DNA of 60,771 bases, counting the filler. It is 6 parts of 6 records of this genome, joined end to end, with 100 filler letters (N's around TTAATTAATTAA, not from the genome) between each part and the next. Parts side by side here need not be neighbours in the genome. Positions count along the whole stretch, not along the records: positions 34,337 to 40,628 come from SRR31156797_27767; 5 more parts are not named here. One strand, written 5' to 3'. A model generated the notes under the pieces. That model was not told the origin of the DNA. It did not search any database and saw only the letters and a list, made by a program, of their open reading frames with translations. Made by a program: the position numbers and the translations under genes. Numbering within the stretch: the stretch's first letter is position 1; each line of letters opens with the position of its first letter. Below, piece after piece: positions 21,688-40,628 of this stretch.

Positions 21688-21787
21688 NNNNNNNNNNNNN
21701 NNNNNNNNNNNNNNNNNNNNNNNNNNNNNNNTTAATTAATTAANNNNNNNNNNNNNNNNNNNNNNNNNNNNNNNNNNNNNNNNNNNN
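21688..21787. other. Artificial contig spacer
   Basis: N44-TTAATTAATTAA-N44. Confidence 0.99.
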
Positions 21788-34336: not shown

Positions 34337-34491
34337 AAAACTCCTCCATCCCCTATTCCTAGTATAGAGTATATCATATCTCTTATGCTTCAGAAAAACA
34401 CAATAAGAAAAATATTCAAATTTATACTTTCCCATAACATAAAAAAAAGAGCCCACATATTCAAATGGACTCAAAAATTTTGATTTCAGAT

Positions 34492-35532
34492 TTATCTCAC
34501 ATAAATTATATATGATTCTTCTTTGTAGAAAATTTCTTTTCCTATTCCTGATATAAAACCTGATAGATTAGTTTTTGGGGATAAGATATCAATCTCCCTA
34601 TTGGTACTATATCTGTTATAAGTCACCCCTTTGTAATGCAGAGTTCCTATTTTTTGCTTAACATATACTTTGAAAGAAATTTCCCTTTCAGTTTGACTTT
34701 TTCTACTTTGCTCTACTAAAAAAAGTATTCTGTCAAGCCAGTTATCTTGAAGTAAAAGCTTTCGAACTTTACCACACTCATTCTTAGTAACATTCCCTTT
34801 ATGAATAGCTTTATTTCTAATATGAATAACTTTTTCCTGCTCAATTCTATTTACAAATGTTTTAAAATCAGAGTTTTCTTTTAATCTTTTCATCAAACCG
34901 CCAAAGGTATCCTTCTTTGAGCTTAACTTATATACTCTTTTTAACTCCAGTTCCAATGCTTTTACATAATTGACATAAGTTCCACTGTAATCAAGTTGGC
35001 CACTTGTTTCATTCAGATAAAGATATTCTGCTGTTGCCAAAGCCATTACACTTTCAGGCAGAAGTCTCTTATAAGTTAATTTGATTTTCTTAAAAATTTC
35101 ATCATAACTTCTTTTTTTAAAGGATTTCTGCTTTTTCTCCTCTTCGAATTTTTCTTTTAGTTTAAGAAGTCTCTTATTTTCACTTCTTAACTGCTTATTT
35201 TCATCAGTTAAATTATTTATTTGATTTTTCGCTTTTTTATCATGATGTTTGTCTATGCTAAAGTCCATAAACATATCAGCTATTTCATTTGTATCTCTTT
35301 GATTCAAACCATTATATTTTTCAGTGCTTAGCGAATCTAATTTCAGCTCAAGTTCTGAATTTCGTTTAAGTAGCTCTTTAACTTCATTTTCAAGTTTCCT
35401 AACTTTTCTATCGTTTAAAGGAGAGTTTTTTATCTTCTTCCCTGTTGTTTTTTCTATTTCTTGTTCTTCCTTCTCAATTTCCTCTTTTTCTTTTTTAAGA
35501 AAAAATTGTTCTATATCTCTCATATCATCCAT
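34492..35532 (-). CDS. Coiled-coil protein with putative HEPN domain
   Basis: N-terminal charged coiled coil; DYS..YVKALELEL..RNKAIH (Rx4H); start at ATG 35532 behind GAGGTG. Confidence 0.65.
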   Translation of the reverse strand: MDDMRDIEQFFLKKEKEEIEKEEQEIEKTTGKKIKNSPLNDRKVRKLENEVKELLKRNSELELKLDSLSTEKYNGLNQRDTNEIADMFMDFSIDKHHDKKAKNQINNLTDENKQLRSENKRLLKLKEKFEEEKKQKSFKKRSYDEIFKKIKLTYKRLLPESVMALATAEYLYLNETSGQLDYSGTYVNYVKALELELKRVYKLSSKKDTFGGLMKRLKENSDFKTFVNRIEQEKVIHIRNKAIHKGNVTKNECGKVRKLLLQDNWLDRILFLVEQSRKSQTEREISFKVYVKQKIGTLHYKGVTYNRYSTNREIDILSPKTNLSGFISGIGKEIFYKEESYIIYVR

Positions 35533-35676
35533 CGTTTTCACCTCTCTAGTATATATTTTCTATAATTAACTATTTATTATTTTTCATATATAAATGTTAT
35601 CATAAAAAAATTAAATTTGAAATAGAAAAATTCAAAGAAAGACAATAATTTTATTCATATAGTTTCCTTAAAAACT

Positions 35677-35871
35677 TCACTCACCTAATATTTCATTAAC
35701 TCTAGTACTAGAAAATTTCCCTGATTTAATTATAAATTCTGAGATACACTCAATACATGTCGCTGTATCTACTGCTTTTTCATATAAGCAAAAGTGTCTA
35801 TGTGGACAAAAATTCCCAACGGCAATCACTTCCAACACATCAAAATAGATATCACTAATTTCATTATTCAT
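35677..35871 (-). CDS. Small Cys-rich hypothetical protein
   Basis: 64 aa with CPHRHFC..TCIEC; overlaps the XRE gene stop. Confidence 0.65.
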   Translation of the reverse strand: MNNEISDIYFDVLEVIAVGNFCPHRHFCLYEKAVDTATCIECISEFIIKSGKFSSTRVNEILGE

Positions 35872-36193
35872 TGAAATTCCTGCCCTCTATCCGCTCATCA
35901 AATGTCATATAGTTGCTTCCTTTCAAGAAAAATCCCGTAATATCACAACTATCGATATAACCGGCAAGCATATATAACATTAAATAGTGAATTCCCAATG
36001 CTTCAGCTAATTTATTTAAAACCAGAGGATTAATAACACTTAGTTTCCCGTTTTCAAGTGCTTTAATATATTCTTTCCTTACCCCTGCCAGATTTGCCAG
36101 ATGATTAACAGTTAACTCTAGCATTCTACGACGTCTATTAATCTGAAACCCCAATATTTCTCTCGACTCATGTGATACAGTAAATCCTTTCAT
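35864..36193 (-). CDS. XRE-family HTH regulator
   Basis: LTVNHLANLAGVRKEYIKALENG..LNKLAEALG; start MKGF behind GGAGGT RBS (109 aa). Confidence 0.85.
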   Translation of the reverse strand: MKGFTVSHESREILGFQINRRRRMLELTVNHLANLAGVRKEYIKALENGKLSVINPLVLNKLAEALGIHYLMLYMLAGYIDSCDITGFFLKGSNYMTFDERIEGRNFNE

Positions 36194-36267
36194 ACATATT
36201 ACCTCCCGCAATTTTAATTTTGGGGGAAATTGTCCTCTCCATAAATCGTCTATAATAATTTTAGTCA

Positions 36268-36307
36268 AAAAATACTTATGGTCGAGCACACGAAGTACTC
36301 GACCATA
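36268..36307 (-). terminator. Terminator-like hairpin in the XRE gene leader
   Basis: Minus strand tatggtcgagtac-ttcgt-gtgctcgaccata-agtatttttt. Confidence 0.55.
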
Positions 36308-36548
36308 TATCATCAACTATTTACAATCATAATTTATCTGTTATTTATGTATTACAAAAGAAAGAAGATTGCTCTCCTAAAGCTTTAATAACCAACAGAT
36401 TTTTCCACAACAAAATTATATGTACTAAAAAATAGGCAACTCTTCAAAGAGTTACAAAACTGAATGTTTGACAAAAAAACGCCGTTTTCTCACCAAAAAA
36501 CTAGGCTGCTCTACTTTTCAAAACAACATCGTTGTGTTATAATTGTGT

Positions 36549-36627
36549 ATAAGTCGTTACATGGTAGTCTCTTACCGTGTTTCGCAACCGGGCTAGAGTA
36601 TTACCAGTACTCTAGTCCAATTTTTTT
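36549..36627 (+). ncRNA. Candidate ~80-nt two-hairpin sRNA, antisense to the XRE leader
   Basis: TGn-TATAAT at 36535-36543; hairpins acatggta/taccgtgt and gggctagagta-ttaccag-tactctagtcc followed by a T run. Confidence 0.55.
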
Positions 36628-36742
36628 ACTTATCACAATGAATTAAATTAATATTAATTCATAGATTATTATTATATTCAATTGTTATAGAGAACTCATA
36701 TAACTACTCAAGCAGTTATAAGTGACAATTCCCTTTATTTAA

Positions 36743-36772
36743 ATTCTAACACAATTTTATAATGAAAATCAA
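36743..36772 (-). promoter_or_regulatory. Putative sigma70 promoter pointing toward the XRE operon
   Basis: Minus strand TTGATT-N18-TAGAAT with TG extension. Confidence 0.45.
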
Positions 36773-36829
36773 GTGGCATTTTTAGAAAATTTGAAAACGT
36801 TTTTGAAATAAAAAGTGTTTAAAAACATG

Positions 36830-36858
36830 ATCCTCTTCGTTATGAAGAGGATTTTTTT
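36830..36858 (+). terminator. Intrinsic terminator
   Basis: atcctcttc-gttat-gaagaggat-tttttt. Confidence 0.6.
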
Positions 36859-36928
36859 GTTATTTACTAGCATATTTAGAAAAATTGCTTAATTGGGAAG
36901 AATAATAGAACTGAGATTTGAATTTTAT

Positions 36929-37451
36929 ATGGATGGGGAAAATGTGGTAGTTATTCTAAAAAATGAATTAATTCAATATTACTCAAATCTAGTAAATGTT
37001 TACTTTTTAGAGTTAAGGGGTCATCCATCAGAATATTATGCGAAATTTAATAAAAGTATAGAAAGTTAAAAATTTGATATGAACAATCAAATAAAAAATA
37101 ATTGATTATTATTTTAGAGAATAGGCAAGCAAGAATAACAGGTAGCCCTGATATCATTAGAAATAGTATTGATAATTTTAATAACTGTCTTAAATATGAA
37201 AGTGATATAAAAACAAAAAATATGAAGAAGCTTTAAACATTTCTCCTAGTTTTAGATTATCTCATTATGTTAAAGGGAGTTTATATTTTCTATTAGGCAA
37301 TGAATCTAAAGCAAAAGAGTCTTTTAATAGATATAAGGACAAGTCGAAAACTTACTTTAGGGACATTGAAAAATGTTTACAAGAAAATAATTTCGAAGAT
37401 CATGATATAAAATTAATTAAAGGTTTTTTTGATAATATTCAAAATAAATAA
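36929..37451 (+). pseudogene. Degraded TPR-protein gene
   Basis: Start-less frame 37206-37451 reads KYEEALNISPSFRLSHYVKGSLYFLLGNESKAKESF (TPR-like); upstream frames broken by stops. Confidence 0.5.
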
Positions 37452-37614
37452 ACTTATTAATTATGCTCAAAATAAAACTTGTAAGAATATACATTAGATT
37501 AAGCAAAAAAACATTTCGAAATCCCAATTAAACATAATTAATTTTGTAAATTATCAAGCTAGTGAAATCATTACGTTATTAACAAAACGCGCGGTGTTAA
37601 TTTTAACTTACTTG

Positions 37615-37643
37615 TTGACAAACAACTTTGAAAAAAGTATAAT
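37615..37643 (+). promoter_or_regulatory. Consensus sigma70 promoter of the sRNA
   Basis: TTGACA-N17-TATAAT, perfect consensus. Confidence 0.9.
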
Positions 37644-37649
37644 AATTTT

Positions 37650-37760
37650 AAGAACATAAACAGCGAGCGTCTAGTCAACGTGAGCTTTGAACAAAACCGA
37701 ACGTGTATGAAATTTGGTAAAAAAGTCATGGAACCGCAGAAATGCGGTTCTTTTATTTTT
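37650..37760 (+). ncRNA. Candidate antitoxin/antisense sRNA (~110 nt)
   Basis: Lies between a consensus promoter and a terminator, no credible ORF; 37702-37721 is complementary to 37855-37875. Confidence 0.8.
37731..37760 (+). terminator. Intrinsic terminator of the sRNA
   Basis: gaaccgca-gaaa-tgcggttc-ttttattttt. Confidence 0.9.
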
Positions 37761-37774
37761 TGAATAAATTTAAC

Positions 37775-37802
37775 TAGACCTTTTTGATTAATATGTTACA
37801 AT
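37775..37802 (+). promoter_or_regulatory. Putative promoter of the peptide/5S-like transcript
   Basis: TAGACC-N16-TACAAT with TGn extended -10. Confidence 0.6.
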
Positions 37803-37888
37803 AGTTTCTGTAGGGAGTGACTCCCCTGCAATATAGCAAGACTGACTATCTTGCTTTACCAAAATTTCATACACGGAGGTGAAGCGTA

Positions 37889-37963
37889 ATGATTGAATCA
37901 ATCATTGGTGGCTTAATAGCTGCAGGTATCGTTGAAATAATACGTTACTTTTTAACTAAGTAG
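37889..37963 (+). CDS. 24-aa hydrophobic peptide MIESIIGGLIAAGIVEIIRYFLTK, candidate type I toxin
   Basis: Translated by hand; strong GGAGGTG RBS at 37875-37881; single TM-like helix with basic/aromatic C-terminus. Confidence 0.75.
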   Translation: MIESIIGGLIAAGIVEIIRYFLTK

Positions 37964-37985
37964 GCTTCGCCTCGTAAGGAACCAA

Positions 37986-38087
37986 TGGCAATTAGGAACA
38001 GGTGATCCACCCGGTAACTATTCCGAACCCGGAAGTTAAGCCCTGAACTGTGACGATACTACGCAAGTGGGAAAATAACTTTTGCCA
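37986..38087 (+). rRNA. Divergent orphan 5S rRNA or 5S-like RNA
   Basis: Conserved core cacc-ggt..ATTCCGAACCCGGAAGTTAAGCC; helix I tggcaa/ttgcca; helix II cagg/cctg; loop-E-like gacgatac/gaaaata; ctac-GCAA-gtgg tetraloop; no 16S/23S nearby. Confidence 0.75.
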
Positions 38088-38092
38088 AACAG

Positions 38093-38139
38093 AAATATAC
38101 CAAAATTATACCTCTAGTATAATTTTGGTATATTTTTTT
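38093..38139 (+). terminator. Long-stem intrinsic terminator
   Basis: 19-bp perfect inverted repeat aaatataccaaaattatac-ctcta-gtataattttggtatattt followed by a T run. Confidence 0.85.
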
Positions 38140-38255
38140 ATAATACTTAATTTAAAAACATCAAATAAAAAAATAGCCTGACTAAAATTAAATTTTAATC
38201 AGACTATTCTTAATCGCTCTTGAGGCGGGGTAGTTGATTGAAAAGAGTAGGATAT

Positions 38256-38555
38256 TCATTTTTCAGAATATATCTCTTTTGCTCTTTCCACCATCTCTTG
38301 CCAATTATTAAATTCTGTATTTTCAGCTACATAAATATCTAGTTCTTCCTCGTCAATATCCTCTAACTCTTCGAAATTTTCCATATCATATCTTATTCCT
38401 GTCAAAAACTCTTCTGTTGAATAGAAGTCAGTATGATCTTCGAAAAATTCATCATTTAATAAAGATTCAATAGGAATTCTTTCAAATAATTGCTCTTTTA
38501 TTACTTCCAAGTCATCTCTTAAATCACTTAAATCTCGCATACTCAAGATCATCAC
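38256..38555 (-). CDS. Small acidic hypothetical protein
   Basis: 99 aa, Asp/Glu-rich, ends T.F.NWQEM..A; AAGGAG RBS; downstream hairpin at about 38167-38208. Confidence 0.8.
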   Translation of the reverse strand: MMILSMRDLSDLRDDLEVIKEQLFERIPIESLLNDEFFEDHTDFYSTEEFLTGIRYDMENFEELEDIDEEELDIYVAENTEFNNWQEMVERAKEIYSEK

Positions 38556-38896
38556 TCCTTTAAATTTTTTAAATTAATAAATCATACGCAAATAAAAATT
38601 TTGATCTAATATAAATGCCTCTTCAAGTTAGTGGATATTGCTTTTAGATGATAAATTATTTCTAGAAAACTTTTTCAAAGTTAAACGATATTTTCATCAT
38701 TTACTTCCTATTGTTGTAGTTGCTTACTCCTCTATATATCAATCATACGTCATTTTATAAGTGATTATCAATAGATTTACTTCTATAGTTTTCATAAAAA
38801 AAATTTTAGTGAATTATACTTTAAAATTTGACTCAAAGCTGAAAACTGTTTACAATATATTTAATGATAAATATCAATAATAAATTTGGGGGGAAA

Positions 38897-39148
38897 ATGA
38901 ACGAAAACAAATTAAAATCGTATCATGTTCAGGCTCAAGTAACTATAGATCTTGAGCTTAAAGCGGAAGATAGCCACGATGCTAAAAAGAAGATGCTACA
39001 ATGGATAGAGGAGAATAATACTTTGGCTACAACATGGGATTGGAGCTTAGAAACTGAAGGTCCTATGGAGGAAGAAGCTTTAACTGAAAGTGAGAGAATA
39101 AAAGAGGCAGCGGCAGAATTGGATAAGAGGTATAAATCTGAGTTTTAG
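38897..39148 (+). CDS. Hypothetical protein
   Basis: 83 aa from MNENK behind a G-rich RBS; TTGACT-N17-TACAAT promoter at 38828-38856. Confidence 0.7.
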   Translation: MNENKLKSYHVQAQVTIDLELKAEDSHDAKKKMLQWIEENNTLATTWDWSLETEGPMEEEALTESERIKEAAAELDKRYKSEF

Positions 39149-39353
39149 CAATAGTTGAGTTACACACAGAAGAAGCTATATTTCATTTATAAAGTAGTTA
39201 AAATGATATTCACAAATGAAAAAAATTTAACAGGAAAGAGTTACTCAAAATAGTATACAGTATTTAAGAGTTGGAATATTACAATTTTTAAAACTACCTT
39301 ATGCTAAAAAATATTTATTGTAAGAATCTGATAATAAATGAAAGGAGATAACA

Positions 39354-40097
39354 ATGAAATATTCATTTTTAACTATAATTTTTATATTCTTTTCATCAAT
39401 CCTACCTGCTCAAGAAACTATAACAGTAGCTTATTTTAATAATTATCCGCCATTTTCTTGGGAAGAAGAAGGAAATATGAAGGGTATATTTATTGATATT
39501 TTAAATGAAGCTTTAACTGAAAATATGGGTATTTCTGTTTCTCATAAAGGTTTCCCCTGGGCAAGAGCTCAGAAATTTGTTGAAGATGGAAAGATCGACG
39601 CATTTTTAACTGTACCTACTCCAGAACGTAAAAAATACACAGAAGTGAGTAAGGAAATTATCGTTAAATCTAAAGTTTCATTGTTTGTACCATCAGGACA
39701 TTCAAAAACTGAGGAAATAAAAAACATAAAAACTTTAGAGGAGTTAAAGCACTTTAAAATGATTACTTACTTGGGTGATGGAGTTGCAAAAAATTTATTT
39801 CATGACTGGAAAAACATTTACTACACAAACACTCTAGATAAATGTTTATTTGTATTAAAAAACGGAAGAAGTGATCTATTCTTACAATCATCTGAGCTTA
39901 CAAATTACAGAATAATTCAACTTGGATACCAAAATGATATTATTGAACTACCCGCTCCTATGGAGCCAGTTTCGTATCATTTTATGATTGGTAAGAAGTC
40001 ATCATTTATAAACATTCTACCGGAATTTGATCAGGTTATTAGAAAAATGAGAGAGGATGAAATAATTGAGAAAATATACAATAAACATATCCGTTAA
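39354..40097 (+). CDS. Family 3 solute-binding protein (orphan)
   Basis: Signal peptide; YPPFSW, GIFIDIL, FPWARAQ, PTPERK motifs. Confidence 0.9.
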   Translation: MKYSFLTIIFIFFSSILPAQETITVAYFNNYPPFSWEEEGNMKGIFIDILNEALTENMGISVSHKGFPWARAQKFVEDGKIDAFLTVPTPERKKYTEVSKEIIVKSKVSLFVPSGHSKTEEIKNIKTLEELKHFKMITYLGDGVAKNLFHDWKNIYYTNTLDKCLFVLKNGRSDLFLQSSELTNYRIIQLGYQNDIIELPAPMEPVSYHFMIGKKSSFINILPEFDQVIRKMREDEIIEKIYNKHIR

Positions 40098-40217
40098 TAA
40101 AGAAGCTTAAATTATAAAAATCCATGTTAACTAATAAATTTTCCAAAATTTCTTGTTTTTAGTATCTTCTAACTTTATAATAAATATAAGAATAAATCAA
40201 AAATATAGAGGTGAAAA

Positions 40218-40601
40218 ATGAGAAAAATAGATATTTATACGATAGAGGGAAAAGAAAATATAGAAGTGGGACCAGATTGTGATGAATGTGTCAGTAATAA
40301 AACTTGCGATGGTGATCTTTGCCCTCCAATGCTAAAGGACATAACTGATTTTATAAATGAGCTGGAGGAACTGAATCTGCTTACTCTAAATATATATAAA
40401 CTCAAAAAAGATAATCACTCGAAAATCGCTAAAGAACTAGAAATCTTAATGAAAAAAAATAAGCAAACATCTAAAATAACAGAAGAAAACATAGAAGATT
40501 TTTTGGATAAATATAATCCAATCATAGCTGTAAATGAAAAAATGACATTTTTTAGAACGATACCAAGTATAAATAGAGTAATTGCTGAGTTAGAGAAGTA
40601 A
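40218..40601 (+). CDS. Hypothetical Cys-containing protein, possibly thioredoxin-like fold
   Basis: CDEC..C..C cluster; PIIAVNEK..IPS C-terminus; GAGGTG RBS. Confidence 0.65.
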   Translation: MRKIDIYTIEGKENIEVGPDCDECVSNKTCDGDLCPPMLKDITDFINELEELNLLTLNIYKLKKDNHSKIAKELEILMKKNKQTSKITEENIEDFLDKYNPIIAVNEKMTFFRTIPSINRVIAELEK

Positions 40602-40628
40602 TCTATAATGAATGTTGTAAATCTTGGC

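Follow-up and report, generated by a model that had tools for sequence, protein, structure and literature searches.

A small hydrophobic peptide gene, preceded by a putative sRNA gene and followed by a 5S-rRNA-like sequence on the same strand, lies on a 6.3-kb contig at positions 34337-40628 of the window, that is, the whole 60,771-nt stretch of DNA that was analysed. The contigs that make up the window differ in G+C and were put end to end with N runs, which start at 21688, 34237, 40629, 47921 and 54229, and a 12-nt A/T linker, so that sequences on either side of a join are unrelated. The contig that carries the feature has a G+C content of 28.5%, compared with 44-60% for the other contigs. 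The 349-aa protein encoded at 34492-35541 had a named relative in Hypnocyclicus thermotrophus (43% identity), further relatives in a Fusobacteriaceae MAG and in Cetobacterium, and matches in 7 of 190 Fusobacteriota genomes. Judging from these relatives, the host of the contig is probably a member of the Fusobacteriota.

The upstream unit on the plus strand begins with a promoter (P1, 37615-37643) in which TTGACA and TATAAT are separated by 17 nt. P1 matches the sigma-70 consensus at 12 of 12 positions and is the only such site among 16 promoter-like sites in 2 kb. The putative antitoxin sRNA (37650-37758, with the start deduced from the -10 box) is predicted to consist of a 5' stem with a 7-nt loop (37671-37677), an antisense core and a terminator of nine base pairs followed by a U-tract (37730-37751). 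Folded alone, the sRNA was modestly structured (z = -1.71; 8 of 200 shuffles were equally stable). The perfect promoter and the ~110-nt RNA with its own terminator had been described in an initial annotation of this DNA, and their coordinates were confirmed.

A second, weak candidate promoter on the same strand (P2, 37775-37802; 9 of 12 positions, with a TG-extended -10 element) precedes the peptide mRNA. The 5' UTR (37809-37888, as placed by a deduced start) is structured, with one hairpin predicted at its 5' end (37809-37830) and another, with a 7-nt loop, at 37835-37855. The SD sequence (37875-37881) is abutted by the sRNA target, and the ORF (37889-37963) encodes a hydrophobic peptide of 24 aa (GRAVY 1.34). 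The second promoter, the ~80-nt structured UTR and the ORF had likewise been annotated, and all coordinates held, with P2 reaching only 9 of 12. That anatomy was correct at every coordinate but incomplete, because the predicted transcript continues past 37963 to a long hairpin terminator at 38092-38136; a search for terminator-like sites gave none from P2 up to this hairpin. Thus, the 3' half of the mRNA had been left out, namely a distal anti-SD sequence (37964-37973), a degenerate 5S-rRNA-like RNA (37984-38090) and the terminator. The mRNA predicted from P2, with ends deduced in the same way, is ~330 nt long and contains the UTR, the ORF, the anti-SD, the 5S-like domain and the terminator. 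Both this length and the 24 aa of the peptide lie within the size range given for toxin-antitoxin (TA) systems of type I (mRNA of 150-400 nt, protein of 20-60 aa; PMC8594479). The peptide had no match in Pfam, NCBIfam or PDB at E ≤ 10, at a peptide length for which HMM sensitivity is low, and the Rfam scan of the window detected no antitoxin RNA family.

Parts of the region were found, by matches at 85% likeness, on contigs of three RNA sequencing runs from three studies, of which run X1 may share the sample of the window and is not independent. Such contigs show neither strand nor membership of one transcript, and expression cannot be ranked from them. The mRNA region was present on contigs of two runs, which cannot show its strand or ends, and the sRNA region on contigs of none of the three, which cannot show strand, ends or absence. 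The supporting contigs (X4 record 25, X3 record 17 and X3 record 18) come from two studies, are single, have depths of 2.8-5.1 and may include DNA. X4 record 25, the sole matching record of its run, spans 37836-38052, that is, UTR, ORF, spacer and half of the 5S-like RNA, and does not have base 38019. X3 record 17 is a diverged relative with 13 differences across 37875-37973; the three listed substitutions in the ORF are all synonymous changes at third positions (chance ~0.02), and its loose end carries a different 5S-like start at nearly the same distance from the ORF. In X3 record 18, the match covers the 5S-like part, and the loose end contains a stop codon and a different pyrimidine-rich, anti-SD-like tract that complements the SD region of the window at 11 of 12 positions by hand pairing. 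The spacing between the stop codon and the 5S start is kept in these diverged X3 relatives. As far as assembled sequence can indicate, the three contigs support a layout of stop codon, anti-SD and 5S-like RNA.

Predicted pairing of the two RNAs and sequestration of the SD sequence

The sRNA core (37702-37721) and the UTR (37855-37875) had been proposed to form 20 bp with one bulge, and this match proved exact and beyond chance. It contains a perfect 14-nt run. Only one other perfect inverted repeat of at least 14 nt with an arm spacing of 50-400 nt occurs in the whole window. The duplex energy was -46.8 kcal/mol, compared with -27.7 ± 4.1 for shuffled sRNA, and the binding energy in cofolding was -21.2, compared with -5.8 ± 2.5; neither value was reached by any of 300 dinucleotide shuffles of the sRNA. 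Type I TA systems have an adjacent RNA of 60-200 nt that pairs with the mRNA over at least 15 nt, and here the computed pairing amounts to 20 bp.

Recognition through kissing loops had also been suggested, on the basis of two shorter motif pairs (37672-37677 with 37843-37848, and 37724-37728 with 37818-37822). Both pairs are exact complements, and the first falls in two predicted 7-nt loops. However, the assignment of partners is uncertain, as the computed duplex extends 37724-37727 into 37840-37843 and not into the proposed motif partners. Further, the loops are not colinear with the core duplex, since the sRNA loop and the UTR loop are both 5' of their core strands. A kissing start between the two loops is possible in the folding model.

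The SD sequence is predicted to be held twice, by a local helix (37853-37860 with 37878-37885) and by a distal helix in which 37964-37973 pairs with 37876-37885 across the whole ORF. Opening the local helix would take about 3-5 kcal/mol, and in this structure the sRNA target lies in an open loop. When 37964-37976 was included in the transcript, the opening cost of the SD rose from 4.8 to 13.5 kcal/mol, and the cost was 11-13 kcal/mol in the full transcript. Of 6275 windows along the contig, none paired better with the SD region than the distal anti-SD (-19.7, compared with -15.3 for the next independent site). Further, the segment from the SD through the ORF to the anti-SD had a folding z of -3.98, and none of 200 shuffles was as stable. 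By computation, therefore, the SD is sequestered in the primary transcript, as in type I TA systems. A non-translatable primary transcript that is activated at its 3' end has been described as a hallmark of type I loci, and for the aapA mRNA, metastable hairpins, a primary transcript that is silent and its activation by trimming of the 3' end have been described (PMC6733600).

Binding of the sRNA raised the computed opening cost of the ribosome-binding region at all three 3' ends tested (from 4.1 to 15.7, from 10.6 to 22.8 and from 21.3 to 26.6 kcal/mol), and on this basis the sRNA is read as a putative repressor of peptide translation. When the distal anti-SD was present, binding slightly lowered the cost of opening the SD only, from 13.1 to 10.7 kcal/mol. 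It is highly improbable, in our estimation, that the upstream RNA instead acts as an activator or a cis leader, either through read-through and pairing within one transcript or by freeing the SD from the local hairpin. The sRNA core does pair with one arm of the local anti-SD (37855-37860). Further, at two loci described below (G069 and G183) a 5S-like RNA begins within a few bases of an upstream terminator, no separate promoter was seen, and read-through may make the mRNA. In the window, however, a candidate promoter (P2) and a strong terminator separate the two units, and the complex reaches onto the SD and makes the initiation region costlier to open, while in G069 the RNA covers the SD and the start codon directly. 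Activation by the sRNA in the window was rejected, given the reach of the complex onto the SD and the costlier initiation region.

5S-rRNA-like domains beside small hydrophobic ORFs

The 5S-like RNA starts 20 nt past the stop codon of the peptide, inside the predicted peptide transcript, and no promoter of its own was found. It matched Rfam RF00001 over the full model (1-120) with 34.6 bits (E = 3.3e-5); because this is below the gathering score of 38, the RNA was absent from the Rfam scan at gathering scores. It resembles 5S rRNA in its full-length match, its conserved helices and its identity of 64-73% to 37 Fusobacteriota 5S segments, of which the closest (73%) is a short-helix-IV variant of 74 bits in genome G192. 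In contrast, intact Fusobacteriota copies score 58.8-95.9 bits, and the copy in the window has a shortened helix I and is embedded in an mRNA. By E. coli numbering, which we take to apply here, degeneration has affected helix I, loop A and outer helix II, whereas the copy has retained helix III, loops B, C and E and a short, GNRA-closed helix IV. Helix III and loops C and E are presumably the regions of 5S rRNA that contact proteins.

At least 4 of the 190 Fusobacteriota genomes contained a degenerate 5S-like RNA (35-47 bits) beside another small hydrophobic ORF. The 190 genomes were first scanned with a pattern that represents the odd 5S core and allows mismatches, which gave the copies of G064 and G069. 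These copies and that of the window served to build a covariance model, which led to two further copies when run on sets of 151 and 39 genomes. The matches to the model were listed under stricter filters, with 460 further matches, and the number of copies is thus a lower bound. In G064 (locus L186), an SD and a 47-aa ORF with a GTG start precede a 5S-like RNA of 41.1 bits. In G069 (L188), the order is a promoter-like site, a terminated RNA, a 5S-like RNA of 40.7 bits, an SD, a 46-aa ORF with an ATA start and a terminator, and in G183 (L221) a terminated RNA, a 5S-like RNA of 47.1 bits, an SD, a 21-aa hydrophobic ORF and a terminator. In G126 (L237), a very hydrophobic ORF of 55-60 aa overlaps the first 12 nt of a 35.3-bit 5S-like RNA, which is followed by a terminator. 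Thus, the position of the 5S-like domain varies, being 3' of the ORF in three loci, including the window, and 5' of it in two (G069 and G183). The five peptides, which are grouped here by the architecture of their loci, are unlike in length (21-60 aa), and those of G064 and G069 had no NCBIfam match.

A same-strand upstream RNA was present at two of the four other loci. In G069, it pairs with the SD, the start codon and the first codons (cofold -18.8, compared with -5.8 ± 3.1, reached by none of 200 shuffles; in the duplex test against the full target, by 1 of 200). The pairing in G183 was not significant (-10.7, compared with -6.7 ± 3.1; 21 of 200 shuffles), and no antitoxin RNA was identified at G064 or G126. 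The distal lock of the window is not shared by G064, because the best partner of the G064 SD lies inside its ORF. A candidate anti-SD after the G064 5S-like RNA was likewise rejected, as this tract pairs with the end of the ORF. Two further features were observed at these loci. Just upstream of the peptide mRNA in L186, positions 1170-1230 form a hairpin with U-tracts on both strands, which could end a cis-antisense RNA over the 5' UTR. In L237, on the minus strand, a strong SD and a 9-codon upstream ORF occur ~100 nt before the hydrophobic ORF, an arrangement that recalls control by a leader ORF.

As a control, we scanned 111 distinct 5S-core contexts, that is, the fetched Fusobacteriota loci and the window, 59 of them with full flanks, for an adjacent SD-led hydrophobic ORF of 18-60 aa. 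Such an ORF was found in three contexts, the degenerate copies of the window, L186 and L188, and in none of the other 108. The scan covered cores that fit the pattern; L221 and L237, whose cores deviate from it, were read by eye. Including the window, five of the six low-scoring full-length copies examined adjoin a small hydrophobic ORF. The sixth (L240), a 43.1-bit copy without a peptide, has an rRNA-operon context on a 241-nt contig. Among 14 regions examined as possible odd 5S copies, one (L237) was degenerate with a peptide; of seven further regions, six proved canonical, with a contig end truncating five of these.

Searches with other parts of the module gave no homologue of the sRNA or the UTR in the 190 Fusobacteriota genomes, for which few candidates are scored per genome, or in IMG/VR. 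In the 190 genomes, the sRNA DNA matched in three genomes through its terminator part only, the UTR plus ORF DNA matched in eight by what proved chance on reading, the peptide gave weak matches in 42, all within ORFs of at least 249 aa, and a pattern of SD, ATG and 5S gave one chance match. In phages and plasmids, blastn yielded ordinary 5S cores and chance matches only. Five IMG/VR patterns gave no match and one gave 13, none with a 5S match and all by chance; one GTDB pattern gave none and another gave 42, all ordinary 5S genes; and one pattern had no match in JGI metagenomes, where another had three that were judged chance on reading. One of the IMG/VR contigs matched by chance (L167) carries a Pistol ribozyme at 787-855 (63.8 bits).

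In the copies of the window, G064 and G069, 11 of 24 base pairs were changed on both sides, and 94% of cells remained paired, in a count that is biased towards structure as it rests on three sequences with the structure drawn on them from the 5S model. None of 500 shuffles retained pairing as well, slid controls reached 33-53%, and compensatory changes occurred in all five helices. The minimum-energy fold of the window RNA alone differs from the 5S fold. On this comparison, the five-helix 5S fold appears to be conserved in the degenerate copies.

The 5S-like RNA may alternatively be an ordinary extra or decaying solo 5S gene, or a remnant left by integration at a 5S gene, with a TA cassette that adjoins it and shares its transcript, and have no regulatory role. 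It is common for Fusobacteriota to have solo 5S genes driven by a promoter of their own, the closest relative of the window copy is the short-helix-IV variant in G192, insertions in loop C also occur in operon copies, and two relatives from RNA runs do not have the extra base 38019 of the window. We nevertheless consider this explanation unlikely, because the solo copies seen look canonical and have no such ORF, in contrast to the low-scoring copies examined, and because the degenerate copies are whole and not half-site remnants. Further, they keep pairing through compensatory change despite far sequence drift, and diverged relatives have retained the distance between the stop codon and the start of the 5S part. 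Solo, canonical-looking 5S genes with a directly upstream promoter were observed in many Fusobacteriota (L025, L087, L105, L112, L182, L243, L244 and L249). They are often located at conserved chromosomal sites, and some genomes have a helix-I variant copy.

A released 5S-like RNA could also be an effector in its own right and serve as a decoy, either titrating L5/L18/L25 or poisoning 50S assembly; one message would then supply both an RNA inhibitor and a membrane peptide. By the numbering assumed above, the retention of helix III and loops B, C and E beside a degenerate helix I would suit a protein-binding decoy. However, the sRNA aims at the ribosome-binding site of the peptide and not at the 5S-like domain, and depth in the RNA runs was low, although contigs cannot rank expression; we regard such a decoy as quite improbable.

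Proposed circuit, known systems and neighbouring genes

At the TisB/IstR-1, ZorO/OrzO, ShoB/OhsC and DinQ/AgrB loci, the antitoxin gene lies 5' of the mRNA without overlap and within 300 nt, complementarity to the 5' UTR covers 18-21 nt, the peptide has 20-35 aa and the mRNA 200-400 nt (PMC8594479, PMC4041452). The window is alike in its upstream RNA, length of complementarity and sizes of peptide and mRNA. However, these four loci have divergent transcription and antitoxins that do not reach over the initiation site (PMC4147584), whereas in the window both promoters and terminators are on the plus strand and the target abuts the SD. Further, the main anti-SD of the window is 3' of the ORF and is followed by the 5S-like domain, and there is no sequence match to these loci.

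In AapA/IsoA and Ibs/Sib, as in the window, the SD is sequestered over a long distance and a weaker hairpin forms during transcription, with activation by 3' processing in aapA (PMC6733600). The Ibs descriptor places an anti-SD 80-100 nt after the start region (PMC8594479), which also resembles the window. In contrast, the antisense RNAs of these families lie inside the mRNA on the opposite strand, whereas the paired RNA of the window is upstream and separate; and their descriptors in PMC8594479 list no rRNA-like domain. Fst/RNAII and SprA1/SprA1as share with the window a short hydrophobic peptide and a pairing that uses separate complementary segments near the initiation region and not the overlap of the genes, but are convergent with overlapping 3' ends and encode peptides of 25-40 aa (PMC8594479). 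The window matched no family model in Pfam, NCBIfam, PDB or Rfam for Fst/RNAII, Ldr/Rdl or other named toxin families. In type III TA systems, an antitoxin RNA, a terminator and the toxin gene follow each other on one strand, and read-through sets their ratio (PMC8167048). This same-strand order is shared by the window, and read-through may apply to G069 and G183. However, type III systems use a repeat-array RNA and an RNase toxin, whereas the window has no tandem repeats, a 24-aa hydrophobic peptide and an RNA complementary to the mRNA. Thus, the module works like the non-overlapping type I loci combined with the 3'-locked aapA and ibs mRNAs, yet it fails the defining layout of each.

The initial annotation had suggested that a non-overlapping same-strand pair with kissing-loop recognition may be a new family. 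The same-strand orientation in itself has a precedent in print: type I TA genes are described as 'divergent, convergent or parallel' in a review passage that names no example (PMC8167048); elsewhere, type I antitoxins are described as encoded on the opposite strand (PMC12390103). The novel part is the recurrent 5S-rRNA mimic in small-peptide mRNAs. We found no report of a 5S-like element in a toxin mRNA or of a type I TA system in Fusobacteria in a literature search to which subscription journals and bioRxiv supplements were largely external. Until a cyanobacterial candidate in 2025, reports of type I TA systems came only from Proteobacteria, Firmicutes and Tenericutes (PMC12390103). Prediction pipelines assume overlapping or known-family layouts (PMC12390103, PMC8594479), and same-strand loci of Fusobacteriota would therefore be missed.

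The reading of the locus as a type I TA-like pair was supported in part, and gained from the two SD-sequestering helices, the exclusively synonymous listed changes and the second same-strand pair of sRNA and ribosome-binding site in G069. On balance, we favour a type I TA-like module in which an sRNA represses a toxin-like peptide and the mRNA carries a functional 5S-like domain. The computations point to a primary mRNA whose SD is locked, an antisense RNA that targets an open loop by the SD and a conserved 5S fold in the message. In this proposed circuit, P2 would give one ~330-nt RNA in which the SD is weakly held by the local hairpin during synthesis, and once 37964-37973 has been made, the SD would become locked across the ORF, yielding a silent primary transcript. 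The sRNA from the consensus promoter would bind the open loop beside the SD, as the computed pairing suggests, and block initiation, and the 20-bp duplex may be a substrate of RNase III. If the level of the sRNA falls, the peptide would be made and could act at the membrane as a growth-inhibiting toxin.

The 5S-like domain may bind free 5S-binding ribosomal proteins, be excised by the nucleases that mature 5S rRNA, or both. A cut at its 5' end would leave an mRNA that ends ~10 nt past the anti-SD and has no terminator hairpin. Trimming in the 3'-to-5' direction could then remove the lock and free the SD, in a step like the 3' processing of aapA but through an rRNA look-alike. We put this route of excision and trimming forward only tentatively. 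In G069 and G183, where the 5S-like domain is directly 5' of the SD, translation could be gated from the 5' side when this domain is bound or processed. More broadly, and with similarly guarded confidence, mRNAs of small membrane toxins in Fusobacteriota may have acquired 5S-rRNA mimics by repeated fusion; such a mimic would bind free L5/L18/L25 and the 5S-maturing nucleases, activation of the toxin mRNA would read the state of 50S assembly, and the same-strand antitoxin RNA would set the threshold.

The same RNA circuit might control a small membrane regulator that is not toxic and acts, for example, on a transporter or on contact between ribosome and membrane, with the 5S-like domain as a cis sensor; the locus would then resemble a type I TA system in its RNAs only. 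The peptide has no toxin-family match, the peptides beside the other 5S-like copies vary in length and sequence, and at the other four loci an antitoxin was not found in two and pairs weakly in a third. However, two layers of SD sequestration together with a dedicated antisense RNA are typical of toxic peptides (PMC6733600; PMC8167048), and we judge a non-toxic role rather unlikely.

In the type I TA-like reading, the 5S mimic may tie production of the peptide to ribosome assembly and would be a concrete, testable trigger for the 3' activation of locked toxin mRNAs. If true, cis-regulatory RNAs would gain a new class, in which a mimic of rRNA serves as an mRNA switch, and ribosome biogenesis would be linked directly to growth arrest. 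This reading would also assign a function to 'degenerate 5S genes' of low score, which annotation drops, as below the Rfam cut-off, or miscalls as rRNA genes.

No mobile-element genes were recognised on the 6.3-kb contig, IMG/VR contained no relative of the neighbour protein, and an origin of the module from a phage or plasmid was rejected, as it had no support in blastn against phages and plasmids or in the IMG/VR search with the neighbour protein. Exact-sequence lookup of seven window proteins in a collection of 15 billion proteins found none of them. The same contig encodes an XRE-type HTH regulator (35864-36316, minus strand) and an SBP_bac_3 solute-binding protein (39354-40097, plus strand). 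An acidic 99-aa ORF (38256-38555, minus strand) is convergent on the peptide module; it had no family above the cut-off, several variants on contigs of two RNA runs and distant relatives in 9 of the 190 Fusobacteriota genomes. A second sRNA-like unit on the plus strand (36539-36635) comprises TATAAT (36539-36544), which follows a short palindrome, together with two strong hairpins and a U-tract. It had no Rfam match at the gathering score and a folding z of -6.73, with none of 200 shuffles as stable. A contig from an RNA run spans 36473-36635 with five differences, and the promoter stretch 36507-36556 was found again on other contigs of run X1.
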